In this document: positions 4,966-63,399 of the stretch, piece after piece
Position numbering within the stretch: the stretch's first letter is position 1
How the letters are laid out: every line of letters begins with the position of its first letter
IMG/VR virus record: IMGVR_UViG_2740892439_000009
Length of the DNA: 64,000 bases
DNA from: a virus
Lineage: Duplodnaviria > Heunggongvirae > Uroviricota > Caudoviricetes
Direction: 5' to 3' (one strand)
The notes under the pieces: generated by a model
Told to the model about the DNA's origin: nothing
Databases searched by the model: none
What the model saw: only the letters and a program-made list of their open reading frames with translations
Translations under genes and position numbers: made by a program

Positions 4966-5315
4966 TTTCCCGCGATGAATCCGGGACAAGGACCGTCTCA
5001 ATAGATCTCGGATTCTATTTCAGTCGTGTAGTTGCTCACTACGCCGTGTCGCCATTAGAGCTACTGAACGTTCCTCTCACGATGTTCTGGATGCTCAGTC
5101 GCAATATAGACCGTCTGCGTGCGGAAGAGGATGTCCGCAACTTACAAGTCGCTCGTGCGTCCCAGGCGGATGGCGAGGCTGTGAAGGCGTTCATGGAGGG
5201 TTTGCAACTCAGGATTGGAAGACCAGTCGTAACAGATAAAGTCTACGATCCAAGCCAGGATAAGGCAGACCCTGACGCCAAAGAGCAACTGATGCAAATA
5301 TTTGGCAGAGGATGA
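4929..5315 (+). CDS. Possible T-region reached by -1 frameshift from the G-like chaperone
   Basis: -1 frame opens at 4929 inside the 3' end of the G-like ORF and runs to 5315; no canonical slippery heptamer seen. Confidence 0.25.
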   Translation, partial: RKRKSGWRRGKVISRDESGTRTVSIDLGFYFSRVVAHYAVSPLELLNVPLTMFWMLSRNIDRLRAEEDVRNLQVARASQADGEAVKAFMEGLQLRIGRPVVTDKVYDPSQDKADPDAKEQLMQIFGRG

Positions 5316-5622
5316 CAAGGGAATGTCACAAAACGTAGAGTTTATCCTGTCGCTGGAAGACAAACAGTTTACAGCGTCAATCGATCGTGCGGGGAAACTG
5401 CTTACTCGATTTGGTGAGCAGGTAACAAAGCCTGCTCAAAAAATCCAAACCTTTGAACGCTCTTTGGGTTCGGTCGCCCGTATCATTGGCGTTCTGGAAA
5501 GCAAGCTCGATTCTACGGCAGATAAACTACAGGATGTAGCTGCCGGTTTTGAGCTTGCTTCAGATGCTACGCGTAAAATGCGTGGCAACATCACCAGCCT
5601 CAATTCTGGTCTTAAAGCCTGA
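5302..5622 (+). CDS. Tape measure protein, N-terminal segment
   Basis: Coiled-coil-like ORF; the next frame opens at 5616 and continues the same sequence character. Confidence 0.45.
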   Translation: MAEDDKGMSQNVEFILSLEDKQFTASIDRAGKLLTRFGEQVTKPAQKIQTFERSLGSVARIIGVLESKLDSTADKLQDVAAGFELASDATRKMRGNITSLNSGLKA

Positions 5623-5681
5623 TTGAGCGCGTCGATACGACAACTTCTTCAGTAGATAAACTCACCGCGTCATTACGTAAA

Positions 5682-7415
5682 GTGCAATCAGAGCTAAATG
5701 ATTTCTCTGATTGGGCGACCTATGCAAGCAAAAGCGCAAGCCGCTTTGGTACGGAGGTCAAAGAAGCCTCTGCGTCCGTGAGTGGCATGAATACGCGCCT
5801 TAATACCACGACGAAGCGACTCAGTAATTGGGGTGTCACAACGAGTCAGGCTGCCGAGGGACTGAAAAAGGTTCGTGAGCAGATGGACGAAGTTATCGGA
5901 CGTCAGCAACTGATTAGCAAGCCGGTACGCGTTCGTACATCTGGAAGTGGCGATGGTGGTAGCGGGCGGCGTAGCGGCGCTTCTGGCCATAGCGGTAAAA
6001 GTAACGAAGGAGGTATGTTCTCTGGCCTTCGTGGCAACATTTTCCTGCTTGGCGAGATCGGAGATGCAGCCAGAACGGTTACTGACATCATGTTTGGGTG
6101 GCAGAAGCCTATTGTTGAAGCTGCGGCCGAAATGGAACGTATGCGGGTGATGCTTCGAGGGTTGAATAAGGAGAAGTCCAACCCGGGCCAGGCTGCCGCT
6201 GATGATATGAAGTACATCGTAGACATGGCTCAAAATGCGCCGTTCGCGATGCAGGCGTTAACAGACTCCTTCGTGAAGTTTCGTTCTGCTGGCTTAGATC
6301 CAACCGATGGTTCTCTGAAGGCGCTGGTGGACTCCGTTGCTCGTTTTGGTGGTGATAGTGAGCTGTTGAAACGTGCGGCTGTGGCCGTTCAGCAGATGTC
6401 CGGTAAGGGCGTTGTGTCAATGGAAGAGCTACGTCAGCAATTAGGTGAAGCCGTTCCTAACGCGATGCAGGCAATGGCAGACGCCGCAGGCATCACTATG
6501 GGGGAACTGACTAAAGCCGTTGCCAGCGGTACGGTTGAGGCAAAACAGGCGTTGTCTCTGATGTTTGTTGGTCTGCGTGCGGAGAATGAGAACGCAGCGA
6601 AAGACATGATGCAAACCTACACAGGTGCGCTGGCGCAACTTCAGACGTCATTCACGTTATTTGCTGATCGGGTTGGTCAGGCCGGATATCTGGATTCTCT
6701 ATCGAAGGGGATGAAAGAACTGGCTTCAATCATGAATAGCGCCGAAGGGATTTCGTTTGCCAATTCTTTAGGTTCGGGGTTAACAACGGCAATCGATGGG
6801 TTGCGTCAGCTTGCTCAATGGTTAGCAAAGAACCAAGAGCTGGTAATTAATCTCGGTAAGGTCGTGGCCGCGATGGTTGCGTTCAAACTGATGCGAGCAG
6901 GGATCATGGGGGTAGTTGGCGCTGGGAGCCAGATGGTTAGCACCTTTGCCACGATGGCGACCGCCATACAGACTCCATTTAACCTCGGCGCTACAGCAGT
7001 AACTCGATTCAATCGTGCGGCACGTATGGGGCTGGCTCCGATCCCCTCTCTTATTTTCGCCATCCGTGGGGCGATTACGGGGCTTAAAGGCGCTTTTGCT
7101 GGATTAACGGCGTTCATTGCAGCAAACCCTATAGGGGCAGCATTTACAGTTGCCACTGTAGCTGTTGCTGGCCTAATCACGTACATGACCATGCTCCGCA
7201 GCGAAACTTCAAAGGTCGTTGACGAGATTAGGAAAATACCAGAAGCGATGACAGCGGCCAAACGTGCACAAATGGCCGACCGCGCAGAAAAGCTCGAAAA
7301 GCAGATTCTTGCTGATCAACGAGCATTAAAAACTGGTGAGGGTGTTAATTACGTATCTAACTCTGCCGGTGTTATTACTCACAAAGAGTCGAAGCTGACA
7401 TCGAAGCACGCCTGA
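5682..7415 (+). CDS. Tape measure protein, middle segment
   Basis: Gly/Ser-rich stretch, long hydrophobic segments, position upstream of M/L/K/I/J. Confidence 0.65.
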   Translation: MQSELNDFSDWATYASKSASRFGTEVKEASASVSGMNTRLNTTTKRLSNWGVTTSQAAEGLKKVREQMDEVIGRQQLISKPVRVRTSGSGDGGSGRRSGASGHSGKSNEGGMFSGLRGNIFLLGEIGDAARTVTDIMFGWQKPIVEAAAEMERMRVMLRGLNKEKSNPGQAAADDMKYIVDMAQNAPFAMQALTDSFVKFRSAGLDPTDGSLKALVDSVARFGGDSELLKRAAVAVQQMSGKGVVSMEELRQQLGEAVPNAMQAMADAAGITMGELTKAVASGTVEAKQALSLMFVGLRAENENAAKDMMQTYTGALAQLQTSFTLFADRVGQAGYLDSLSKGMKELASIMNSAEGISFANSLGSGLTTAIDGLRQLAQWLAKNQELVINLGKVVAAMVAFKLMRAGIMGVVGAGSQMVSTFATMATAIQTPFNLGATAVTRFNRAARMGLAPIPSLIFAIRGAITGLKGAFAGLTAFIAANPIGAAFTVATVAVAGLITYMTMLRSETSKVVDEIRKIPEAMTAAKRAQMADRAEKLEKQILADQRALKTGEGVNYVSNSAGVITHKESKLTSKHA

Positions 7416-7486
7416 AAAAAAATCAGGAAGAGTATCAAAAGATAACCGGCACGATAGCTCTTGGTGACGGCGCTGTAGCAAAGCGT

Positions 7487-9844
7487 TTGGCTAAAGAGGC
7501 TGCCGAATCTCAGATTGAGAAAATTCGAGCGGAAAACCAGATTTTCGCGGCAACATTCGTGAAAGCCCGGCAGGAGGCTCTGGATAAGATCCAGAAAATC
7601 AATGATGACGGTTCACTTTCAGATGATGAAAAGAACAAGCTATTGGCACCGTTACGTGAAACGGTAAACAAAAGCTATCTTGAGCCTGCGCAAAAACTGG
7701 TTGATTCACTTTCTTCTCGTAAGAATGCGACCGAGAAGCAAATCGCGACTCTTAATGATCAGCTTGAAAAAGCCAAAAAGGATGGAAATACCGAGCAGAT
7801 CCAGAAACTGCAAGGCAGTATTCGTGGTTATCAGGAGCATTTGGAAGCCGTTGCTCAGGAGCTGACTCAGGCAGAGTTCGAGAGAGATAACGCGGCCAAA
7901 ACTGGTAAGGGCGTAATGTCAAACCAGGGGACTGTTCTTGGGTTAGGTACAACTGATAAAGCTGCTCAGAAGGCGCTGGCGCAATATATGCGAAACCAGA
8001 TGGATTCTGCGACTTATCAACGTACTTTGCCTGACGGCACTCCGATGATGGACTTCGAAGGTAAGCCGATTATTGGGCCTAAACAACTCAAGACGCAGCT
8101 TAATTTGCAGAAAGCATCCAGTGCCAGCTCTCTGGAGAAAATGAGCGATGAAGAGCGTGCCGCAGCCATTGCTGCACTGACTAAAGCTCGTGAACAGGAT
8201 GCAGCAGCCGCCGAGAAAGCAGCCCAACGATCAGCTAACGCCTCGCAGCGTGCGGCCAAGAAGGAACAGGCAGCGCAACAGAAATTGGCAGCCGGATACC
8301 AGAAGGCTCTGGACAAAGCCGATCAGCTTATGGGGCAAATGGGTGAAAGTTCAAAGGCCACCGTGTCGTTTGATCAGTCGCTGCGTGATGTCACTAAGTC
8401 ACTAACCGATCTTGCAAACGCCACGCCTAACGAGTTTATCTCGCAGGAGATGGTTGACCAGGCTAAAAAACGTCTCGCGGATTTGAGGAACGCTACCCCC
8501 GAATACAGTGAAATGTTTAATCGCCGCAACGTCGAGCAAATGATCAGCGCTTGGGCGCCGGAATCGGATTCGATTATCAGCGCAGGCTTGATGCAAAGCC
8601 ATGAGGAGAAGGCTGCAGAGTTTTCGGATACCTACAACCGCAATCTTAAGGCGCTGATCGAGCTGCGTGATAAGGCGACTGACCCGAAAATCATCTCGCT
8701 TTACAACAAGCAGCTTAATCAGCTGGTGGCCGCTGGCAATAATGCGCTGATTAAGCAAACAGGTACAGCGACCCAGCAGTTGGCTCTGGAGTATGAGAAC
8801 CTGGCTGAGCAGATTGAGGGCACCTGGACAGATCTGTTTAGCGGCTTAACTGACACGCTTACTGACTTTGTTGTTAACGGAAAGATGAGCTTCTCCAGTC
8901 TGGCCACATCGATCCTTAAAGACATCACCAACATGGTCGTGAAGACCCAGATCACTCTGCCTCTCATGAATATGTTGGGAATGGGAACGACAAACGCCGG
9001 CAATGCACAAAGTGGAAATCTCATGAATAGCGTAGCGTCTGCGATCGCTAATCAAGGGGTTCAGCTAGGTAATTCTGGTGGGTCGGTGGCCAATGGGGAT
9101 AAATCTGTCGGCGAGGCCACTAAGGAGACAGCCTCCGGCGTGAATTCGATGGGGCAAGCGTCTCAGAATGCGGCCAGTGGTTTAAGTCAGGCGGTGAATG
9201 GCGTCTGGGACTGGACTAAGTCATTGTTCACCGGTACTGACGCTACGAAAGATCAAACCAAAGCGGTTAACAGCAGCATCCTCAGTATGGGGAATCTGTC
9301 TACCGCGGCTGGGGCGCTGGCAGCTACATTCGCCATGGTAGGTGCTTCGTCGTCGAGTTCGTCCAGCCGTTGGCTGAATTTCGGTCTGTCACTGGCCAGT
9401 ACCGCAGTGTCCGCCTGGGCTGGGTCTTCGACGCCATCAGGCTCAAAGCCAAATGTGAAGAAGCACGCCAATGGCGGCATCTTTGGCAGGGAAGGGGTTG
9501 TGCCTCTGAGAGCTTATCAGAAAGGCGGAATTGCCACCTCACCACAGTTGGCGATGTTTGGCGAGGGCTCAATGAACGAGGCTTACGTTCCGTTGCCAGA
9601 TGGTCGAACCATTCCAGTCACACTTTCTGCAGAGTCGGCTGGAAAGAGCACGGGTAACGCGGTGTCCCCTGTCTCGATTCAGATCAATGTAACCAAGGAT
9701 GGCCGAACCAGCGAGAGCAGCAGTGGAAGCGAGAGCAGTCTCTGGAACGGCGCAGCACGGCAAATCAAGTCGATTGTGCTTGAGACGATTGCCGAAGAGA
9801 AACGTTCTGGTGGTTCACTTAATCCGCATACCACCAGAGGGTAG
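7487..9844 (+). CDS. Tape measure protein, C-terminal segment
   Basis: Frame open from 7361; long coiled-coil-like region; frame changes next to an A8 run at 7415-7422. Confidence 0.65.
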   Translation: MAKEAAESQIEKIRAENQIFAATFVKARQEALDKIQKINDDGSLSDDEKNKLLAPLRETVNKSYLEPAQKLVDSLSSRKNATEKQIATLNDQLEKAKKDGNTEQIQKLQGSIRGYQEHLEAVAQELTQAEFERDNAAKTGKGVMSNQGTVLGLGTTDKAAQKALAQYMRNQMDSATYQRTLPDGTPMMDFEGKPIIGPKQLKTQLNLQKASSASSLEKMSDEERAAAIAALTKAREQDAAAAEKAAQRSANASQRAAKKEQAAQQKLAAGYQKALDKADQLMGQMGESSKATVSFDQSLRDVTKSLTDLANATPNEFISQEMVDQAKKRLADLRNATPEYSEMFNRRNVEQMISAWAPESDSIISAGLMQSHEEKAAEFSDTYNRNLKALIELRDKATDPKIISLYNKQLNQLVAAGNNALIKQTGTATQQLALEYENLAEQIEGTWTDLFSGLTDTLTDFVVNGKMSFSSLATSILKDITNMVVKTQITLPLMNMLGMGTTNAGNAQSGNLMNSVASAIANQGVQLGNSGGSVANGDKSVGEATKETASGVNSMGQASQNAASGLSQAVNGVWDWTKSLFTGTDATKDQTKAVNSSILSMGNLSTAAGALAATFAMVGASSSSSSSRWLNFGLSLASTAVSAWAGSSTPSGSKPNVKKHANGGIFGREGVVPLRAYQKGGIATSPQLAMFGEGSMNEAYVPLPDGRTIPVTLSAESAGKSTGNAVSPVSIQINVTKDGRTSESSSGSESSLWNGAARQIKSIVLETIAEEKRSGGSLNPHTTRG

Positions 9845-29136: not shown

Positions 29137-29805
29137 ATGACCAAGATCTTTGTGGTTGGCGGCACAAAGGGCGGGCCTGGCAAATCCACCGTTGCCCAGC
29201 AAATTGCCGTTTGCCTGAAAGTCAAAAAGAAGAAGAAGGTTTATATCACCGATATAGATATTCAGCGCACGACAACGAGCTGGTGTGAAGACCGTCGACA
29301 GAACGAAGACCTTGAGCTGATTCCTTTTGCATACGTTCAGGATGACATCATTAAGCACCTAAAATCGCTTCAGGGTAGAGCTGAGTTTGTAGTGGTAGAT
29401 GCTGGTGGCTTCGACTCCGAAATTCAGCGACAAGCGATGCTGATGGCTGACGTTATCATTATCCCGCTGCGTCCTAAGCGTCGTGATTTGAAATCTTTAC
29501 GTGACATCGATCCTATTATCGACAATGTTCGCAATGTAAACGATAAAGTGAAGGTCCGCGCGGTCATGAACCAGTGCCCGGCTTTGCCATCACAAGTGTC
29601 TCGCATTCTGGCGGCTAAAGAGATTGTCGAGACGTTTGGCATCGAGTCTGCGCCAGTCAATCTATATAACCGCAACGTCTACGATGATGCGGAAGAGTCT
29701 GGTCGTTCTATCTTCGAAATGACCGGTAGCGAGCGCGACAAAAAGGCGGAAGCCGAGTTTGAAGAATTTGTAGATTATCTGTTGAGTCTGGAGGAAGAAG
29801 AATAA
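29137..29805 (+). CDS. parA: ParA-family partition ATPase (small type)
   Basis: Deviant Walker A GGTKGGPGKST; 222 aa. Confidence 0.75.
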   Translation: MTKIFVVGGTKGGPGKSTVAQQIAVCLKVKKKKKVYITDIDIQRTTTSWCEDRRQNEDLELIPFAYVQDDIIKHLKSLQGRAEFVVVDAGGFDSEIQRQAMLMADVIIIPLRPKRRDLKSLRDIDPIIDNVRNVNDKVKVRAVMNQCPALPSQVSRILAAKEIVETFGIESAPVNLYNRNVYDDAEESGRSIFEMTGSERDKKAEAEFEEFVDYLLSLEEEE

Positions 29806-40068: not shown

Positions 40069-40143
40069 GATGGTGTAGCTCAGCGGTAGAGCAGTTGGCT
40101 GTTAACCAACTGGTCGGTGGTTCGAATCCACCCACCATCGCCA
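40069..40143 (+). tRNA. tRNA-Asn (anticodon GTT)
   Basis: Acceptor GATGGTG/CACCATC, D-arm GCTC..GAGC, anticodon loop CTGTTAA, T-loop TTCGAAT, encoded CCA. Confidence 0.8.
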
Positions 40144-40148
40144 ATTTA

Positions 40149-40235
40149 GGGGAGTTAGTCCGTAGAGGTAGCGGTGTAGACTGTAAATCTACTGTCATTG
40201 CGACTCGGGTGGTTCGACTCCATCACTCCCCACCA
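40149..40235 (+). tRNA. tRNA-Tyr (anticodon GTA), long variable arm
   Basis: Acceptor GGGGAGT/ACTCCCC, anticodon arm GTAGA-CTGTAAA-TCTAC, T-loop TTCGACT, CCA. Confidence 0.75.
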
Positions 40236-40239
40236 AATT

Positions 40240-40315
40240 GCCGGTTTAGCTCAGTTGGTAGAGCGCTGCCTTGTAAGCAGGATGTCAGCGGTTCGAGTCC
40301 GCTAACCGGCACCAA
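40240..40315 (+). tRNA. tRNA-Thr (anticodon TGT)
   Basis: Acceptor GCCGGTT/AACCGGC, D-arm GCTCAGTTGGTAGAGC, loop CTTGTAA, T-arm AGCGG-TTCGAGT-CCGCT, CCA. Confidence 0.7.
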
Positions 40316-40538
40316 TACAACGATAAGATCATTACGGTTAATCGTCGTTCATGTGCACAATGACTGGTCGAAAGGTAGTGATCTTACCGTTGTGGTGGAT
40401 TCGCAGACTGATGCGATAGCTTTCTTGGATGTTAGGGAAATGCGGCCGCAAATCTTCCCTTTCGCGAGCGGTGATCGTCCGTAGTCCTAATTGGCTGCAC
40501 CGTATGCCGGAGATTCAGTACCGGCCACCACAACGGCC

Positions 40539-40625
40539 GGAGAGTAGGGAGCATGGTGCTCAAGCGGTCTTGAAAACCGTCCCATTGCGCAAGCGATGAT
40601 GGTTCGATTCCATTACTCTCCGCCA
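40539..40625 (+). tRNA. tRNA-Ser (anticodon TGA), long variable arm
   Basis: Acceptor GGAGAGT/ACTCTCC, anticodon loop CTTGAAA, T-loop TTCGATT, CCA. Confidence 0.75.
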
Positions 40626-40779: not shown

Positions 40780-40803
40780 AAAGGGGCTTCGGCCCCTTTT
40801 CTT
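40780..40803. terminator. Bidirectional rho-independent terminator
   Basis: AAAGGGGC ttcg GCCCCTTTT flanked by T/A runs on both strands. Confidence 0.6.
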
Positions 40804-42014
40804 CAAAAAAGTTTTATAAATTCATAATTCTGGTCAATTAAGGATTCAATACACACCATGCAAAAATCTACATCGTCAAAATCAGGTGTGTAATATTCAT
40901 CCTCATAACATTCATTTAGACCTTCAATCAATTTTTCTTTAAAAACTCCCCACGTTTCAATATGAACCATTTCCATATAAGGCGCATGTGTATGTGCTTG
41001 CAATACATCCCAGGTGTCTATAACCTCGATCCGCGGCTTGCAATTAATTTTTTCTAAATATGCCTTCCCAGAATTGTAAATTTTCGACATTGATGCCCCA
41101 AAACCTGATGGTTGGTAATGAGTGTAAATGTCATAAATTTTTTGTCCTATTCTAGGGAGTTGAGAAGCATTGGATATTTGTGGCGAATGAAAGTATCGCT
41201 CTATGGAAGAAAACGCAGAAACATTAACTAGAGTAATCGTATATGGCGCTAAAGTTCTCTCATTCAAATTTCTACATAAAATAGCAAACCCATGGCTATT
41301 AGTCTTTTCACCGTCTGAGGACATTTTTGCCATGCTGGCTTTAATAACATTCAATTTCGAATGTAAACGAGAAGTTGAAGTCGGTTTATTATACATTTCA
41401 TCATCATACAAACATATATGAAACCCACCAAGATGACGAAATGAGAACTTGAGTGCTTCTTCCGCAATAACTAATTTATTAATATCTAAAGGAGTAAGTG
41501 ATACGTTACCTTGTAAATCATAGCAAGGTTCTAAACATAGAAAGTTTTTCTTCTGCCACACGATCATATTAAAAATAAAGTGTCTAACCAGGGGTGGCCA
41601 GTCAGGTGATATAAGTACATTGGTAATATCTCCATCAGACAAGTATGACAAGTAACTTTTTAGTTCCGCAGCATATGCCACCAACTCAGTTCCAGCTTCC
41701 CTTGTTGGTGTTGAAAAGTTTTTTAACTCAATAAGAACTAAGGATTCATTCTCTGTTGAATAAGCAACAACATCAGGTCTTAATATCTCAGATTTTGTTG
41801 CTGAGATATTCTCATCATCTGTCATTAAATGTAACAATGTTATGTTCTTTAAACAAAACTGATAACTCTCCTTAATTTTTTTCTCTTCGGGTCTTTTCGG
41901 ATTAAATTCGTTTAATTTATCAATATTGATGATTGAATTATATAATCCATCTTGATCAGATAATTTGTCAATTATCCAATTTTGCATTTCCTTTTCGCTT
42001 AAAAATATTGACAC
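40803..42014 (-). CDS. Candidate defence effector: 403-aa protein with putative PD-(D/E)xK nuclease motif
   Basis: RPDVVAY ... LVLIELK arrangement in N-terminal third; GTG start preceded by GGGAG; markedly AT-rich. Confidence 0.5.
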   Translation of the reverse strand: MSIFLSEKEMQNWIIDKLSDQDGLYNSIINIDKLNEFNPKRPEEKKIKESYQFCLKNITLLHLMTDDENISATKSEILRPDVVAYSTENESLVLIELKNFSTPTREAGTELVAYAAELKSYLSYLSDGDITNVLISPDWPPLVRHFIFNMIVWQKKNFLCLEPCYDLQGNVSLTPLDINKLVIAEEALKFSFRHLGGFHICLYDDEMYNKPTSTSRLHSKLNVIKASMAKMSSDGEKTNSHGFAILCRNLNERTLAPYTITLVNVSAFSSIERYFHSPQISNASQLPRIGQKIYDIYTHYQPSGFGASMSKIYNSGKAYLEKINCKPRIEVIDTWDVLQAHTHAPYMEMVHIETWGVFKEKLIEGLNECYEDEYYTPDFDDVDFCMVCIESLIDQNYEFIKLF

Positions 42015-42040
42015 TAATTAGGCTCCCGTTAAACCAAAAA

Positions 42041-42862
42041 TTAAAAATCTTGCTTTACTTTATCCATGGTCAGAATTTTGCTAATAATTGAAGATTCAAA
42101 TCCATCTAAACCTGAGAGAAAGTTAATTAGCTTTTGGATATGTTGTTCTTTAGGTATAAGTATATATTTTATATCATTGAACTCAAAATCAATGCCAAAC
42201 TTTGAAAATTCTGAGCTAATTTTTGCTTTGTCATCAGAAGTGATAACACGCTCCAAACTCAGACTAGGCCATAAATCACCAATAAAAGGAGCTGGCACAT
42301 AACGCCACTCTTTCTCGTCTGCATATATATAATTCTCTATTGTTTTATTATCTTTTCGCTCTAGCTTGCCTCTGTAATTTTTCATATAACGCAGTAAATT
42401 ATATAGATCAGAGTATTCTGCTTTCAATTTCTCAAACTCTATTCTGTTTTTGGTATCTAAATTTCCTCTAGCCTTCCAAAGCGGCACCAACTTATTTTTA
42501 ATAAGTCGAATTCTGGCATTGTATTTAGAAAATATTTCACTACTCTTATTCATATATAGAACTGGGTGTAGACCTTTCTTTTCCGCCCAAGACTTAGTTA
42601 GCCCAAGACCGAATTCTCCATATTTTCCGCTATGATCTCTGATTTGTGATAGTTTTATGTCACAAAACGATACCATTGGTACTGCAAACCTCCTACGTCC
42701 CCCGACTCCTCTTATTTCCTCGCGAGCAAGAAATGGTTTAAAATATTTCTCAGCCAATATGCTATAGAAAGCATCTTCGTTTTTTGTAAAATGAAACAAC
42801 GTGGTTGGATGAAGACTATAAACAGATTCAACATTCGCATCAGGATTTTCAAGGATAGTCAT
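42041..42862 (-). CDS. Candidate defence partner protein (about 273 aa from ATG; track ORF extends to 42907)
   Basis: ATG (MTILENPD) preceded by AGGTG; LFHFTK...YG.FGLGL motifs; AT-rich; co-oriented 26 bp upstream of the 403-aa gene. Confidence 0.5.
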   Translation of the reverse strand: MTILENPDANVESVYSLHPTTLFHFTKNEDAFYSILAEKYFKPFLAREEIRGVGGRRRFAVPMVSFCDIKLSQIRDHSGKYGEFGLGLTKSWAEKKGLHPVLYMNKSSEIFSKYNARIRLIKNKLVPLWKARGNLDTKNRIEFEKLKAEYSDLYNLLRYMKNYRGKLERKDNKTIENYIYADEKEWRYVPAPFIGDLWPSLSLERVITSDDKAKISSEFSKFGIDFEFNDIKYILIPKEQHIQKLINFLSGLDGFESSIISKILTMDKVKQDF

Positions 42863-42938
42863 TTTACACCTTGTGGAAAGCCAGTTTAGTTCTGTAAATA
42901 GTATCACACGACAGGCGGCTATTCTTCTATCAATAAAT

Positions 42939-43609: not shown

Positions 43610-44713
43610 ATGAAAAATAGCTTTGACAGAGCACGCGCTGCGGAGAACACCTCAAAAGAGGCGATAGAGTATCTCGAAAGAGCATCTCAAATGCAGGCCG
43701 TTATGATCTCGCAGGTTAGCAATGACATGAGATTCTCGGACGCATTCATGTTATTCACTCGCTTATCTCTGCTGATAACCAGACGTCGGCCAGAGATCGC
43801 TGTTCATTGTATTTTGATACATGTTTTGCCGCACATTGCCGATGTAAAAGTAAGTGACATTAATAGGTTCATGGTGAACCAACTGGTCAACCCACTAATA
43901 CTGGATGGCAAAATTGTTATGGGCCGCCGCGTTTTCTCTCTGATGAAGCAGTTCCTTAGCTGGTGCGCCTTCCAGGGGATGATAGACGTGTCACCGTTAA
44001 ACGATATGTCACTTAACAAAGTTGCCGGTGGCGCAAAGCCCACACCTCGCGAGCGGAAGCTGACCGACGCAGAGGTATGGGTGTTCTGGAATATATGGGA
44101 CTACTTCAATGTGTGCGCTGGTACAAAATGGGCGGCCAGGCTGTGTCTTGTATCAGCAAGACGACCTGATGAAGTACTGCGGGCTAAAAAAAGTGAGTTC
44201 AATCTTAAGCGTGGGGTTTGGAATCAAGGCAAAAGAAACAAGTCAGCACGTGAGCATTCGCTGCCTTTAAGCACATTAATGCGCACATGCATTGAAGAGT
44301 TGTTCGAATACGGTAAAGACAGCCAGTGGCTCGTGCCTTCGAATAAAAAAATCGGGAAAGACCTTCCTATGTCTAAAGTGGCAATAGCCCAGGCATTACG
44401 TCGTATTCTGGAACGACCAGAACTGATGGAGCTTGAGCCATTTACACCCCGAGATTTGCGCCGTACTGCGCGTAGTTACTTCCCAGCATTAGGCATAAGC
44501 CAGGAGGTATCACGCAAAATCATGAACCACAGTCTTGAGGGGATAGATCGGGTCTACGACCGGCACGATTATATGGACGAGATGCGAGACGCCTTAGAAA
44601 GTTTCTCGACGTACATCGCATCAATCGTAGAGCAACCGGATTTAGACGAAATTGACCACAAATTCAAGGGAGATCGTCTATCAACAGAGCTTATTCGTGT
44701 AAATTTTTCATAG
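43610..44713 (+). CDS. int: Tyrosine recombinase (integrase/resolvase family)
   Basis: C-terminal R...H..R...Y pattern (DLRRTARSYF, MNHSLEG, VYDRHDY). Confidence 0.7.
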   Translation: MKNSFDRARAAENTSKEAIEYLERASQMQAVMISQVSNDMRFSDAFMLFTRLSLLITRRRPEIAVHCILIHVLPHIADVKVSDINRFMVNQLVNPLILDGKIVMGRRVFSLMKQFLSWCAFQGMIDVSPLNDMSLNKVAGGAKPTPRERKLTDAEVWVFWNIWDYFNVCAGTKWAARLCLVSARRPDEVLRAKKSEFNLKRGVWNQGKRNKSAREHSLPLSTLMRTCIEELFEYGKDSQWLVPSNKKIGKDLPMSKVAIAQALRRILERPELMELEPFTPRDLRRTARSYFPALGISQEVSRKIMNHSLEGIDRVYDRHDYMDEMRDALESFSTYIASIVEQPDLDEIDHKFKGDRLSTELIRVNFS

Positions 44714-52826: not shown

Positions 52827-53096
52827 GAATTATGGCGCTTGTTGAGGAAGTCACTCCTCTTACGCACTTTGTTTTGCCATGCCGGCAGTTAGCTTCTGCC
52901 TTTGACTATTCATGCGGCAACCCCGCATTTCGCCACAATGGGCAATTCACTTTTATGGAATAAACTGGCCGTTGTGTCGATTTAATTAGCATGGCCTTAC
53001 CATGCTAATTTATTCAACTTGTACAATCCTACAAATCTATCCACTCAGGCTTACACCGTCTTCGTTATTGTAGAAATGAGGATCATCAGCGTTGAA

Positions 53097-53312
53097 TCAG
53101 CTTAGAGCAACGACATTTGCTGCTGCTGGGCCTTTAGCCCCATTCTCGATAGAGAATTCGACCTGCTGGCCTTCTTCCAAAGTGCGGAAATTATTACTCT
53201 GAATTGCCGAAAAATGTACAAAAACATCTTTACTGCCATCAGCAGGAGAAATAAAGCCAAAGCCTTTATCAGAGTTAAACCATTTTACTAAACCAGTCAT
53301 TTTATTAGACAT
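53097..53312 (-). CDS. Cold-shock protein (CspA family)
   Basis: [23 protein letters not shown]...VFVHFSAI closely parallels E. coli CspA. Confidence 0.85.
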
Positions 53313-53641
53313 AGATATTACCTTCTTAATTTTGTGAGCCACATAGTGCGGCGAGAATTTGATCTGTATAGATTGGGACTTACTTAGGCACTTAAGGAGG
53401 AGACTCACGAAGAAGGGAAATCAGAAGATAACACTGAACTGAGACTGCTTTACTAAAACTGCTTACATAAGGTCTGTCTTGCAAACCAACGATGCTATTA
53501 ACGCATACCCCTTCTTTTCATGCAACCTTTATTTTTCAAAGATAACTAATTTTTGTCACCATTGGTTTAGTAAACGTTAACGAACCAGACGATGCCAGAC
53601 ACCTTTACAGAGAACAGATGCCCGCCAATTGGCGGGCATCA

Positions 53642-57594: not shown

Positions 57595-58668
57595 ATGGCA
57601 AAAGGAAAATCCGCACTGGCACTTGCTCTGAAAAAGAAAATCGGTAGCAACGACGAAATTCAGAAAGTAACTCATTGGATTGACACAGGCTTTCCTCCGT
57701 TAAACAAAGCTATTTCTGGTCGTTACGATGGCGGCTTCCCATGTGGTCGTATCGTCGAAGTATTCGGTCCTCCAAGCGCGGGGAAAACGTTCCTTGCAAC
57801 AGCAGCGATGATCTCCGCTCAAAAACAAGATGGTCTGGCGGTATTCCTCGATCATGAAAACAGTTTTGACGTTGGCCTGGCTGTAGCCAATGGCCTGAAC
57901 GCAGATGAGGATGACGGTCAGTGGGTATACAAGCAGCCAGATACCTTCGAAGACTCTGTAGAGTTGATCGGCACAATACTTAAATTGGTTCGTGATGAAG
58001 AGCTTATCCCCGAATCAGCACCTATCTGTATCGTGGCTGACTCTCTTGCGTCTATGGTTCCGAACTCCAAAGCCGAGAAGTTCGAAAAGATGGCTGAAGG
58101 CACTGCCAAAGACAAAGATCAGCTAAACATGAACGACAATACGGCACTGGCTCGTGCGACGAGTGCGAACTTCCCTACTCTGGCTTTGTGGGCACGCAAA
58201 TACAACGCCTGCATCATCTTCTTGAATCAGGTTCGCACAAAAATCGGTGTAATGTTTGGCGACCCTACTACGTCGCCAGGTGGAGATTCACCGAAGTTCT
58301 ACGCTTCTGTACGTATCCGTCTTGGTGCATCGGTGATGAAGGATGGTAAAGAGAAGATCGGCCAGGACGTAGGCGCAGAATGCATCAAAAACAAAGTTGC
58401 ACCACCGTATGGCAAATGCACCTGGAAATTCTACTTCGATCCTACTCGTGGCCTCGACGTTATCGAATCGCTCGTCGAGTACATGCTGGAAGAAGGATAC
58501 CTGCCAAAGAACGCCAGCGGGCGAGTTGAAATTGGTGACAAGAAATACACAAAATCGCAGATCGTCGAGATGTATCGGGAGAAGCCACTGGCTGAAATCA
58601 TTGCGGCTTTGCAGGCAATCGACGACCGAAGAGCAAAAGACAACCCCACCGAGTCAGTAGAAGAGTAA
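57595..58668 (+). CDS. RecA/UvsX-like recombinase
   Basis: GRIVEVFGPPSAGKT Walker A region and overall pattern parallel RecA. Confidence 0.75.
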   Translation: MAKGKSALALALKKKIGSNDEIQKVTHWIDTGFPPLNKAISGRYDGGFPCGRIVEVFGPPSAGKTFLATAAMISAQKQDGLAVFLDHENSFDVGLAVANGLNADEDDGQWVYKQPDTFEDSVELIGTILKLVRDEELIPESAPICIVADSLASMVPNSKAEKFEKMAEGTAKDKDQLNMNDNTALARATSANFPTLALWARKYNACIIFLNQVRTKIGVMFGDPTTSPGGDSPKFYASVRIRLGASVMKDGKEKIGQDVGAECIKNKVAPPYGKCTWKFYFDPTRGLDVIESLVEYMLEEGYLPKNASGRVEIGDKKYTKSQIVEMYREKPLAEIIAALQAIDDRRAKDNPTESVEE

Positions 58669-59794: not shown

Positions 59795-59808
59795 CTCCCC
59801 TTAAAAGT

Positions 59809-59837
59809 TCAGGCGTCCAGTTGGACGCCTTTTTTAT
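59809..59837 (+). terminator. Rho-independent terminator
   Basis: AGGCGTCC agtt GGACGCCT followed by TTTTTT. Confidence 0.6.
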
Positions 59838-59885
59838 CGCAATTATCTTATTAAGAAAACAATTTGTTTAAAGGGTCAAGAAAAT

Positions 59886-61193: not shown

Positions 61194-61450
61194 TGGCATT
61201 AACACTGGCAGGTCTGGAAATCGAGAAAACAAGCGGCTACTGGCGTGCTAAGGGTTTCAAGCAGCCTGGCATTCTTGAGCGTCTGGAACGTGAAGATGGG
61301 TATATCGTCCACCAGCGGCGTGAATGGCGTATGTACGATCCAGAAACAGGAAACTGACTACAAAAGCCGGAACACTTTGGGGTCTGTTAAAGAAAATACA
61401 CTAAATGCAAACTGACTGCGGCACGTTCCGCAGTCATATTTCATAGTCGT

Positions 61451-61985
61451 CACCGCTGACAGCATACACAATCAACTACCGCTGATAGCATATCGAGAGT
61501 CTATCTCACCGCTCACAGCATACTTTACTCGATTTTTTACCGCTGACAGCATACTTAAGACATTGCATGAATAATGTGTACCGGTATGGGTATAACCAGA
61601 ACAAAATTACCGCTGGCAGCATACGAAGGTCTGACATATGCCATTAATTACCGCTGATAGCATATCCAAACAAAAATTCCTCAATAAAACACCGCTGACA
61701 GCATACATTCTATCAGAGAGTAGCAGGCAATAAATGCCTTTCACTACAAGCAATCAGCGCAATAGCAATAGAATGTTAGTGAGCGCAAACCTATATGGAA
61801 TGCACTCTTCGAGGTTAGTAACCACTGGGGAGGTATGACAGAGCATTGAGTGGTGATAGATGATTTACCGCTCACAGCATACGTTCATCTCACTATACCG
61901 CTGGTAGCATATCTTTAACCGTTCACAGCATACTTTTCAGAAAAATAGCCGCTGATAGCATACATTTCACCGCTGACAGCATATC
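61451..61985. repeat. Iteron array (12 copies, consensus about yACCGCTGACAGCATAC) downstream of repA
   Basis: Copies near 61451, 61478, 61507, 61538, 61607, 61647, 61690, 61865, 61896, 61917, 61947, 61969. Confidence 0.8.
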
Positions 61986-63078
61986 AAAGCAGTTTGAGAC
62001 TATTGGAAAGGATCTCAATCATCTTGATATTTTCAGGCGTCAAATTCTGCGAAAGTTCAGTTATCTTGTTGATAATGTTCTGTTTGGCATCAATTTCCCC
62101 GGCTTTCTCATCTGGTTTTTTGGGTTCGATGTCTTCAGGTTTTGGCGGTGCGACTTTGAGTTTTGGATTGCGGCTGTGAATCTGGATATAGATCGACCGC
62201 CCACGCTTAATCTCGCTGTATTCGAGATAGCCCAAATCTTGGAGAGCTTTTAAGCCGTTACGTATAGTCTGATTCTGCGAGCTGACATTCCTGCTACTCA
62301 AATTGAGTCGCGCACGCAATCGAGCAAGCGATACCGGCGCAGGCTTGGTTGGAAGACTTTCGATGAAGGTGTACAGAGCCTGTGCTGTTTCTTTGCGTGG
62401 TAGCTTATTGATAACCTTTAACTGCAAAAGAACCTTATGGTCAAAGCGATATAGTTCGGCCAGCTTCGGTTCTGCATAGAACACCACCGTATCTTTCTGC
62501 TCGTTGTAGTCCACGCTATTGATGAGGTGCACCATCAGAAGCGAGATCTTGTTAGAGCCGTCGACGTTCTTTTCTTCATACGTTCTCTGGAAAGACAGAG
62601 TTGTACGCATGATCTTCAAAAGACTGTTTGTAAGCCGGTCGCGGAGTGTTTTGCGGATCTGTGACGATGGATAGCCACAAAACTTCGCAAATTTCGTGAT
62701 GCTTAACTCGACACGACCATTAGGTTCGCCGTATTCTGCCAGCGAACGCACAACGCCCACCCACGTTTTGAAATCATGATCCATGTCCAGGCGAGGACCG
62801 GTTATCTTGATATCGGAATAGCCTTCAGAACGGGCTACTTCGAGCTGGACAAGCTCCTTTGAAGCATCGATCTCATTTGGCTTGTTACGTTTACTGTATT
62901 TTGTTCCCTTAAGCGTGGGGACGAACAACCCCAGTCGCATCAACGCAATTGGTTGGACTGTATTGTTGCTATTAGGGACAAGTTCCCCTGTGTACAATTC
63001 AAGGGAACCTTCTTCAAAGTTGTCGATGTTATCTTCTACTTCTTTGTTATTTTTACCTTTTTTATTTTTTGTGGACAT
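61984..63078 (-). CDS. repA: Plasmid replication initiator RepA (iteron-binding)
   Basis: Flanked on both sides by iterons; ATG (MSTKNKKGKNNK) preceded by AGGTG; track ORF extends to 63198. Confidence 0.65.
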   Translation of the reverse strand: MSTKNKKGKNNKEVEDNIDNFEEGSLELYTGELVPNSNNTVQPIALMRLGLFVPTLKGTKYSKRNKPNEIDASKELVQLEVARSEGYSDIKITGPRLDMDHDFKTWVGVVRSLAEYGEPNGRVELSITKFAKFCGYPSSQIRKTLRDRLTNSLLKIMRTTLSFQRTYEEKNVDGSNKISLLMVHLINSVDYNEQKDTVVFYAEPKLAELYRFDHKVLLQLKVINKLPRKETAQALYTFIESLPTKPAPVSLARLRARLNLSSRNVSSQNQTIRNGLKALQDLGYLEYSEIKRGRSIYIQIHSRNPKLKVAPPKPEDIEPKKPDEKAGEIDAKQNIINKITELSQNLTPENIKMIEILSNSLKLL

Positions 63079-63098
63079 GTGGACACCTTTGTCATTCA

Positions 63099-63200
63099 AC
63101 CGCTGACAGCATACTTGATTTGCCGCTGACAGAATACCAAAAACAGTTGGCAGCATACGGTGAACCGCTGACAGACTATCAATTACCGCTGACAGCATAC
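63099..63200. repeat. Origin-proximal iterons (4-5 copies) upstream of repA
   Basis: AACCGCTGACAGCATAC, TGCCGCTGACAGAATAC, GAACCGCTGACAGACTAT, TTACCGCTGACAGCATAC plus a partial copy. Confidence 0.75.
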
Positions 63201-63240
63201 ATGAACATGGCTTCAGACCAGTCGTGGCGCGGCTTACAGC

Positions 63241-63313
63241 GATCGGGGATCTTATTTGATCTATACAAGGATCTATCTATGGATCTCTTTATTAGGATCT
63301 ATCCTGTGGATAT
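63241..63313. other. Candidate replication origin: six GATC sites in about 60 bp plus a DnaA-box-like ATATCCACA
   Basis: GATC at 63241, 63248, 63258, 63270, 63282, 63296; DnaA-box-like 9-mer on the minus strand at about 63301-63313. Confidence 0.55.
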
Positions 63314-63399
63314 GTGAATAATTAAAACAGGCATTTACTACCTTCGGCGCACCTGGTGGGTTATCGTTGCCTCGGCTAACAATCACAGAAAAATGACAT

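Follow-up and report, generated by a model that had tools for sequence, protein, structure and literature searches.

The window, by which we mean the whole 64,000-nucleotide stretch of viral DNA analysed here (IMG/VR record IMGVR_UViG_2740892439_000009, Caudoviricetes), carries near its right end a gene for a replication initiator, repA. Repeated short sequences (iterons) lie on both sides of this gene, and a cluster of GATC sites and a pair of DnaA-box-like 9-mers lie beyond the upstream iterons. The features, in order of position, are as follows.

61413..61436, no strand: terminator-like hairpin, bidirectional, bordering the control array on its outer side; its 9-bp stem includes 6 GC pairs and was detected on either strand
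61452..61706, plus strand: distal control block (incA-like), 7 iterons spaced 26-70 bp
61707..61866, no strand: iteron-free spacer of 160 bp between the control blocks
61867..61984, plus strand: proximal control block, 5 iterons spaced 21-30 bp, the last overlapping the repA stop codon by 1 nt
63078..61984, minus strand: repA, replication initiator of 364 aa, predicted to bind iterons (Pfam, phrog and P1/RepFIB homology)
63070..63086, minus strand: two tandem copies of TGTCCACA across the repA start codon, each a 7/9 match to the DnaA box
63099..63200, plus strand: five origin iterons (incC-like), spaced 23/21/21/21 bp, i.e., two helical turns
63201..63240, no strand: GC-rich spacer from the iterons to the GATC repeats, containing GCCGCGCCACG in the repA-sense orientation
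63241..63299, no strand: six GATC (Dam) sites in AGATCC-type short repeats, within an AT-rich stretch
63305..63321, minus strand: tandem DnaA-box-like 9-mers, ATATCCACA (63305-63313) and TTATTCACA (63313-63321), which overlap by one base and lie outermost in the origin

RepA was identified by a profile search of the kind proposed in an earlier, sequence-only reading of this DNA. The N-terminal winged-helix domain Rep3_N (PF01051) matched residues 118-239 with an E-value of 3.9e-9 and 37.5 bits (cutoff 22.4), and phrog_775 matched the protein at 5e-133. RepA is 52% identical to the initiator of the F-plasmid RepFIB (BLASTP, E 2e-110), the closest outside the SSU5 group of phage-plasmids, and 43.5% identical to P1 RepA (tblastn, E 2e-64). 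Alignment with its relatives has 76 invariant columns. The core of the protein comprises residues 30-310, and relative to P1 RepA there are about 30 extra amino acids at the N-terminus and about 55 at the C-terminus. The same protein, at 100% identity, is present in CMS-2020a and NZ_CP024264. We identified no meaningful match in a PDB sequence search, either with RepA alone or with a 6-sequence profile, and no match in an NCBIfam search. Comparison of the RepA profile with F RepE using hhalign gave a weak local match in WH1 (probability 2.7%), and a single-sequence AlphaFold2 model (pLDDT 40) was unusable. P1 RepA is reportedly related in fold to the RepE-class initiators, to go by the title of a 2004 JBC paper by Sharma et al. 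The start of repA annotated in RefSeq (63198, against 63078 here) is probably 120 nt too far upstream, within the origin iterons.

The 16-bp iteron ACCGCTGACAGCATAC has 18 matches in the window at no more than three mismatches, and 17 of these fall within 61452-63200, all on the plus strand. Shuffles of the whole window gave a mean of 0.39 matches and a maximum of 3. The gene for RepA divides the 17 iterons into 12 downstream and exactly five upstream, where the sequence-only reading had counted 12 and four to five. The number of control iterons differs among relatives (12 here, 9 in PhiR41_1 and 8 in the Klebsiella type), and in PhiR41_1 three iterons of the distal block were lost via an 87-bp iteron-to-iteron deletion. 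In Klebsiella pJN2-26 the control blocks are only about 70 bp apart, against 160 bp here, so the length of the spacer is not conserved. The hairpin at 61413-61436 would set the control iteron array apart from the converging plus-strand genes. The promoter for repA presumably lies within the origin iterons; a sigma-70 consensus scan identified no repA-strand promoter in this interval, and manual inspection gave weak candidates only.

It could be argued that these repeats serve in recombination, in phage attachment or as a centromere for partition, and are not binding sites for an initiator. The GenBank record for the Klebsiella phage pJN2-26 labels two 20-bp copies attL and attR, labels that an automatic repeat finder seems to have produced, and a tyrosine recombinase is encoded in the window at 43610-44713. 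However, the 17 copies flank an initiator of the Rep3 family, and their spacing and positions match those of the experimentally mapped RepA-binding iterons of P1. The element was never found integrated in complete E. coli genomes, and the ParA-like gene is 32 kb away. We regard this explanation as extremely improbable, and treat the repeats as iterons.

Beyond the GC-rich spacer, GATC sites start at 63241, 63248, 63258, 63270, 63282 and 63296. The sequence-only reading had placed six such sites within about 60 bp; they span 59 bp and form the sole cluster of at least six GATC in the window. When the 283 GATC of the window were placed at random, a cluster of this kind arose in 8 of 2000 trials. 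The GC content is 31% at 63260-63339, and the stretch 63241-63299 is presumed to be the unwinding and methylation-sensing element. The DnaA-box-like 9-mer noted earlier beside the GATC sites turned out to be two tandem 8/9 matches, each with one mismatch, so that the feature extends to 63321 and not only to 63313. Single 8/9 matches to the DnaA box occur at chance level (15 found, 14.1 expected), and a lone match was rejected as a standalone signal. The two boxes are retained through positional homology, because both align with the two annotated DnaA boxes of P1; they also align with boxes in Klebsiella (TTATCCACT, twice), SSU5 and F RepFIB (TTATCCACATATCCAGA). The nucleotide sequence of the origin core as a whole can be aligned with those of P1, SSU5 and Klebsiella pJN2-26, and in this alignment GCCGCGCCACG in the spacer is common to P1 oriR and pJN2-26. 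The TGTCCACA motif over the repA start occurs in the window only as the tandem pair, and at the matching place the Klebsiella relative reads GTATCCACA (8/9). Since 7/9 matches are frequent, at about 3 per kb, it is position that suggests these may be weak DnaA boxes, tentatively analogous to the second, repA-proximal DnaA-box array of P1.

A phage-plasmid lifestyle had also been proposed from the sequence, and gene content, distribution and the literature on the SSU5 group agree with it. The window codes for a tape measure protein, tail fibre J and other tail fibres, and for phage replication proteins (DnaE, primase, SSB, ligase and helicase-like ATPases). The combination of siphovirus structural genes with a rep/ParA-like gene, and with relatives on plasmids of about 100-115 kb, is that of the SSU5 supercommunity (PMC7969092, PMC3999498). 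Elements of the SSU5 group are extrachromosomal, inducible and packaged (PMC9600943, PMC9928086), and Cyrano, an SSU5-like phage-plasmid, exists as an episome that can be induced and has about 5.5 copies per chromosome (PMC9928086). Of 5426 complete E. coli genomes, 120 (about 2%) carry the 2-kb segment, mostly at 95% identity or above. It occupies 185 places in these 120 genomes, all of them on plasmids; among those listed, the carrier plasmids are mostly about 100-115 kb. This plasmid location of every copy found is, like the anatomy and homology of the segment, a direct observation. An element known only in integrated form had been named as an outcome that would speak against the phage-plasmid proposal, and an integrated prophage was rejected, with 0 chromosomal copies in the 5426 genomes. 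The segment is also present in 143 PLSDB plasmids, 136 of which are non-mobilizable, and in three phage records, with near-identical DNA in PhiR41_1 and CMS-2020a. Because the tape-measure gene is frameshifted in the copy in the window (around 5618 and 7414-7421), this particular element may be a plasmid no longer able to make phage, or the sequence may have errors.

The presence in the window of a full set of phage replication proteins (DnaE, primase, helicase-like ATPases) raises the question of which genes maintain the element. The repA-iteron module could be a non-functional relic from an IncF plasmid, with maintenance by the phage-type replication genes from another origin. The closest relatives of RepA are plasmid RepFIB initiators, and proteins about 50% identical to it occur in more than 4500 plasmid records, as a relic of this kind would have it. 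Yet repA is intact and is 99-100% conserved in more than 100 independent plasmids, and the whole set of 17 iterons has been retained, together with the GATC repeats and the DnaA boxes. In the Klebsiella and SSU5 relatives the layout stays the same even as RepA and the iterons diverge together, which is characteristic of selection on function. The iteron tracks RepA: it is the same where RepA is 85% identical (Klebsiella) and different at 48% (SSU5) and 43.5% (P1), and the DnaA/GATC module is unchanged throughout. In addition, rep_cluster_488 is the sole replicon typed on p09EL50, with no second plasmid replicon. A relic is thus very unlikely.

We are confident, therefore, that the window comes from a siphovirus phage-plasmid of the SSU5 group (pECOH89/p09EL50 lineage), and that the segment 61452-63321 is its prophage-plasmid maintenance replicon, a theta replicon under iteron control that belongs to the RepFIB/P1 family and is the sequence behind episomal maintenance. 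The biochemical steps proposed here are all drawn from homology with P1 and RepFIB. RepA monomers would bind the five phased origin iterons (63099-63200), and host DnaA would bind the tandem boxes at the far end (63305-63321). RepA and DnaA would jointly open the AT-rich stretch that contains the six Dam sites (63241-63299), and the host helicase and replisome would load there. Firing would need Dam methylation, and the hemimethylated GATCs would be sequestered afterwards. By analogy with P1, RepA bound to the origin iterons would repress the repA promoter, so that the gene would be autoregulated. The 12 downstream iterons (61452-61984) would titrate RepA and pair with the origin iterons ('handcuffing'), which would keep the copy number down. 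The element probably uses its genes for DnaE, primase, SSB and ligase in lytic replication and not in plasmid maintenance. Elements of this kind are common in E. coli; their replicon sets incompatibility, copy number and gene dosage, and some of them carry ESBL genes.

The layout matches P1 oriR/incC-repA-incA and RepFIB, as the sequence-only reading had it. The annotation of P1 (NC_005856) has the same order of tandem DnaA boxes, GATC repeats, GC-rich spacer, 5 iterons, repA and control iterons. The origin iterons are spaced 22/21/21/21 bp in P1 incC, against 23/21/21/21 bp here, and in P1 copy 9 of the incA iterons extends exactly to the final base of the repA coding sequence, much as the control array here abuts the repA stop codon. 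The iteron sequence, in contrast, differs (GTATGCTGTCAGCGGT here and GATGTGTGCTGGAGGGAAA in P1), P1 has 5 GATC sites where there are 6 here, and the repA-proximal DnaA boxes are clear in P1 whereas only weak 7/9 motifs were identified here. Unlike P1, in which parAB is directly beside incA, no parA-parB-parS was identified next to the incA-like array; there are only small converging ORFs downstream of the iterons, and a gene for a ParA-like ATPase lies at 29137-29805. The replication part is thus P1-like, but the whole is not the P1 rep-par cassette. The phage backbones are also unrelated, as P1 is a myovirus and the element here is an SSU5-type siphovirus.

Some differences from P1 concern control of replication. 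The 12 control iterons are all direct and lie in two blocks separated by 160 bp, whereas P1 has 9 in mixed orientation and orientation is also mixed in SSU5. Iteron number varies naturally among the relatives, the N- and C-terminal extensions of RepA include a tail of about 55 amino acids that is absent from P1 RepA, and the copy number of Cyrano, which has another RepA type within the group, is above that of classic P1 (PMC9928086). The two-block direct iterons and RepA extensions could therefore mean that a RepFIB/P1-type replicon has its control wired otherwise, with a copy-number regime or a coupling of lysis and lysogeny unlike that of P1. However, F RepFIB RepA too has a C-terminal tail, which aligns in part with the tail here, and ordinary iteron plasmids vary widely in iteron number and orientation with no change in mechanism. 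We give such rewiring very little credence. The separate proposal that the SSU5-group replicon is tuned differently from P1, through its 12-iteron, all-direct, two-block array, varying iteron number and RepA tail, is doubtful. If it were so, iterons gained or lost, or an altered tail, would change the copy number and with it the dosage of cargo genes such as blaCTX-M-15, and plasmid replication might also be coupled to the lytic switch. A 2026 preprint with the title 'Novel phage-plasmid mediated mechanism of antibiotic heteroresistance in Escherichia coli', which is said to name RepA 41 times, may address tuning of copy number and dosage.

RepFIB of the IncF plasmids (F, P307 and REPI of pColV-K30) provides the initiator closest to RepA outside the SSU5 group. 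Reading the F RepFIB origin directly shows the same TTATCCACA box and, after it, five GATC sites at 11-13-bp spacing. The iterons of F RepFIB have other sequences, and the carrier is a conjugative plasmid and not a phage. Because the iterons differ, incompatibility with classical IncFIB seems unlikely from the sequences.

The replicons of SSU5, pHCM2 and Cyrano, and the Klebsiella 'IncpKPHS1' replicons, have the same genomic position and architecture as the one described here. The RepA of SSU5 and Cyrano is only 48% identical to that in the window and is associated with another iteron (AACCACTGTAGAGAGTAG); in SSU5, the origin module is tandemly duplicated and the iterons are in mixed orientation. 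The Klebsiella type is closer, with the same iteron, 85% RepA identity and 8 control iterons. The spacing of the GATC sites (14/12/12/10/7) is identical to that in Klebsiella, and in SSU5 it is 13/12/12/10/7. The Klebsiella 'IncpKPHS1' replicon has been described as a single iteron-regulated replicon (PMC6735626). The 'attL/attR' labels on iterons in the pJN2-26 record are a wrong annotation.

In pECOH89/p09EL50 and the E. coli SSU5-group phage-plasmids PhiR41_1, CMS-2020a and pAvM_E1373_29, the sequence is essentially the same, with no difference of substance. The 2-kb segment of p09EL50 is 99.5% identical over its full length, with all 17 iterons at the same positions, and pECOH89 and p09EL50 have identical RepA proteins (PMC3999498). 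The SSU5 supercommunity has been typed IncFIB (PMC7969092; 10.1101/2025.09.12.675607), and pAvM_E1373_29, one of the matches to the segment, has been typed FIB (PMC8085198). From the name itself and PMC3999498, we infer that the PlasmidFinder name IncFIB(H89-PhagePlasmid) derives from the pECOH89/p09EL50 lineage. The result thus serves annotation and not discovery: the replicon is already known from this lineage, typed IncFIB and in use as a typing marker, and its mechanism is that of the textbook P1/RepFIB replicons.

We identified an iteron-regulated replicon at 61452-63321 of the window. Searching with the iteron ACCGCTGACAGCATAC (up to three mismatches, with 100 shuffles as background) found 18 matches in 64 kb, where 0.39 would be expected and no shuffle exceeded 3. 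All but one (17/18) fall in 61452-63200 and share one orientation. The elements are:

61452-61706, seven distal control iterons (incA-like, downstream of repA)
61867-61984, five proximal control iterons, the last sharing one base with the repA stop codon
63198..61984, minus strand, long form of repA, 404 aa, from the first ATG
63078..61984, minus strand, short form of repA, 364 aa, starting at an internal ATG that follows AAAGG
63099-63200, five origin iterons (incC-like, upstream of repA), spaced 23, 21, 21 and 21 bp
63241-63296 (starts), six GATC sites
63305-63321, two tandem DnaA-box-like 9-mers, each matched at 8/9 positions

The observation made in the sequence-only reading is thus confirmed. 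Its twelve iterons downstream of repA and six GATC sites within about 60 bp stand as described, and its four to five upstream iterons number exactly five. The DnaA-box-like 9-mer is present, as one of two rather than singly, and the right-hand end of the feature moves from 63313 to 63321. No other GATC cluster in the window is as dense, and at least six sites in 63 bp arose in 8 of 2000 random placements of the window's 283 GATC sites. GC content is 31% in the AT-rich stretch carrying these Dam sites. Taken on their own, DnaA-box matches of 8/9 are no more frequent than chance predicts (15 found against 14.1). The only two copies of the 8-mer TGTCCACA in the window lie in tandem across the start of repA; the Klebsiella relative has GTATCCACA there. 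Tentatively, the pair may be the counterpart of P1's second DnaA-box array.

The single long ORF of the region is on the minus strand, by ORF listing and by direct reading. The RefSeq/PGAP annotation uses the 404 aa form from ATG 63198, but the extra 40 codons consist of origin iteron sequence (all five are read through), and annotated repA genes of both Salmonella phage SSU5 and PhiR41_1 begin past the iterons, PhiR41_1 at the ATG corresponding to 63078. For these reasons ATG 63078, with its AAAGG Shine-Dalgarno sequence, seems the likelier start. A promoter scan of the origin found none on the repA strand. The profile search proposed for RepA returned Pfam Rep3_N (E 3.9e-9, over the gathering score) and PHROG 775 (5e-133). 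Identity is 100% to RepA of phage CMS-2020a, 99.7% to PhiR41_1, about 85% to Klebsiella phage-plasmids, 52% to the F-plasmid RepFIB initiator (E 2e-110), 48% to SSU5 and Cyrano, and 43.5% to P1 and P7 RepA over residues 32-309 (E 2e-64). RepFIB-type initiators about 50% identical to it occur in more than 4500 plasmid records. A RepE-like two-domain fold is suggested by the Rep3_N match and published work on P1 RepA. Its basis is confined to these two, as PDB searches with sequence and profile gave no meaningful match, NCBIfam gave none, single-sequence structure prediction reached pLDDT 40, and hhalign of the RepA profile against F RepE found a weak local WH1 match (probability 2.7%).

Replication may proceed as in P1 and RepFIB. 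DnaK/DnaJ/GrpE would turn RepA dimers into monomers that fill the five phased origin iterons, while DnaA would bind the tandem boxes. The AT-rich Dam-site stretch between the RepA and DnaA sites would then melt and DnaB load. Firing would need full methylation, with hemimethylated sites sequestered afterwards. RepA sitting on the origin iterons would repress repA, and the 12 downstream iterons would titrate RepA and handcuff origins, limiting copy number. Publications on P1 include Abeles & Austin 1987, Wickner et al. 1992 and Park, Mukhopadhyay & Chattoraj 1998, which are among the references of PMC4980987 and PMC2865523.

Three phage records, 143 PLSDB plasmids (136 non-mobilizable) and 120 of 5426 complete E. 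coli genomes carry the 2-kb replicon, in most cases with an identity of at least 95%. The E. coli matches occupy 185 places, all on plasmids; no chromosomal copy was found in the 120 carrying genomes, so the integrated element without episomal form considered in the sequence-only reading was not encountered. Together with the tail genes (tail tape measure, J-type central tail fibre and tail fibres), this supports the phage-plasmid lifestyle proposed there. Most records among the matches listed are about 100-115 kb. Plasmid p09EL50 matches at 99.5% and has this as its sole typed replicon; its RepA is identical to that of the phage-like plasmid pECOH89 (PMC3999498). PlasmidFinder types the SSU5 supercommunity as IncFIB (PMC7969092; 10.1101/2025.09.12.675607), and pAvM_E1373_29, also among the matches (H98), is typed FIB and placed in the pHCM2/SSU5 family (PMC8085198). 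The Klebsiella relatives have one iteron-regulated replicon and were given the name IncpKPHS1 (PMC6735626). Mitomycin C induces SSU5-like phage-plasmids, and these are packaged (PMC9600943). Cyrano, an episome with about 5.5 copies per chromosome, produces virions in response to ciprofloxacin (PMC9928086). The feature belongs to the P1/RepFIB family of iteron replicons and is the IncFIB-type replicon, catalogued before, that characterizes the pECOH89/p09EL50 lineage among SSU5-group phage-plasmids. This identification helps annotation and adds little new. For this lineage, the searchable literature yielded no account of the boxes, GATC repeats and 5+12 iterons; this fine anatomy can be read directly from homology.

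The window also encodes replication and repair proteins (primase, ligase, DnaE, gp32-like SSB, 5'-3' exonuclease, RecA-like protein). Maintenance functions are dispersed, unlike P1's one cassette, since the ParA/MipZ-like ATPase (29137-29805) is 32 kb away from repA and the tyrosine recombinase (43610-44713), which may act as a dimer resolvase, is 17 kb away. The tape-measure gene (5302-9844), a single 4578-nt ORF in Cyrano, is in three ORFs (5302-5622, 5682-7415, 7487-9844) matching successive parts of phrog_1292. Compared with Cyrano, one nucleotide is missing at 5618 (GCCCTG to GCCTG), and the frame changes again near an A8 run (7414-7421). Either the sequence is in error here or this copy is defective as a phage. 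Four tRNAs (Asn-GTT, Tyr-GTA, Thr-TGT, Ser-TGA) cluster at 40069-40625; the pECOH89 paper gives Thr and Asn only (PMC3999498). A full-length Rfam cspA thermoregulator 5'UTR (RF01766, 185.7 bits, 53072-53490, minus strand) implies a phage-plasmid-borne cold-shock protein gene with an RNA thermosensor. An AbiGi-domain protein (42041-42907, Pfam 2e-24) adjoins a 403-aa ORF without Pfam match (both within 40803-42907, minus strand), and together they may make up an AbiG-type abortive-infection pair among the cargo genes. PhiR41_1 has a RecA-like gene of 2340 nt (L002 927-3266), versus 1074 nt in the window (57595-58668) and p09EL50, which suggests that the PhiR41_1 copy holds an insertion of intein or homing-endonuclease type. 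Between the SPFH gene and a 141-aa ORF, p09EL50 (L001 2402-4424) has three additional hypothetical genes (about 2.1 kb) absent from the window (59795-59885) and PhiR41_1; the interval is a spot of variable cargo, at a distance of 1.5 kb from the replicon.

The P1 oriR/incC-repA-incA and RepFIB-type layout named in the earlier reading is supported by element order in P1, RepA homology and the F RepFIB DnaA-box/GATC module. P1 has incA (9 iterons, the final one ending at the last base of repA), repA, incC (5 iterons, spacing 22/21/21/21 bp), five Dam sites and an 18-bp DnaA site (curated record NC_005856). The window matches this order, the iteron phasing and the iteron/stop-codon juxtaposition in the same orientation. 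In repA sense, the outer halves of the two origins are visibly homologous, each with tandem DnaA boxes, GGATAGATCC, AGATCC units in repeats, GATCG and the GCCGCGCCACG spacer. Unlike P1 (6 inverted and 3 direct), the window has 12 control iterons, all direct, in two blocks 160 bp apart. It has six GATC sites rather than five, partition genes not adjacent to the replicon, and a RepA longer by about 30 aa N-terminally and about 55 aa C-terminally, the latter extension being partly shared by the F RepFIB initiator.

The TTATCCACA box recurs in F RepFIB, with five GATC sites after it. GATC spacing in Klebsiella phage pJN2-26 is that of the window (14/12/12/10/7), whereas SSU5 has 13/12/12/10/7 and control iterons in mixed orientation. 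Two RepA iterons of pJN2-26 (L005 1378-1397, 2648-2667) are labelled attR/attL in GenBank, and automatic att prediction from repeats almost certainly produced these labels in error. SSU5 (L004 1780-2400) has its complete origin module, with DnaA-like box, GATC repeats and iterons, tandemly duplicated at a 375-bp period, and several GATC sites of the repA-proximal copy have degenerated to GAACC/GACCC. Iteron number varies naturally: pJN2-26 has eight control iterons, and an 87-bp deletion has removed three distal ones from PhiR41_1. Mean column identity across five aligned origin cores (window, pJN2-26, both SSU5 copies, P1) is 71%. Iteron sequence follows RepA divergence: the Klebsiella relative, at 85% RepA identity, has the window's iteron, and SSU5, P1 and F have others. 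A conserved host-factor module with co-varying initiator and iterons is how a functional iteron replicon should look.
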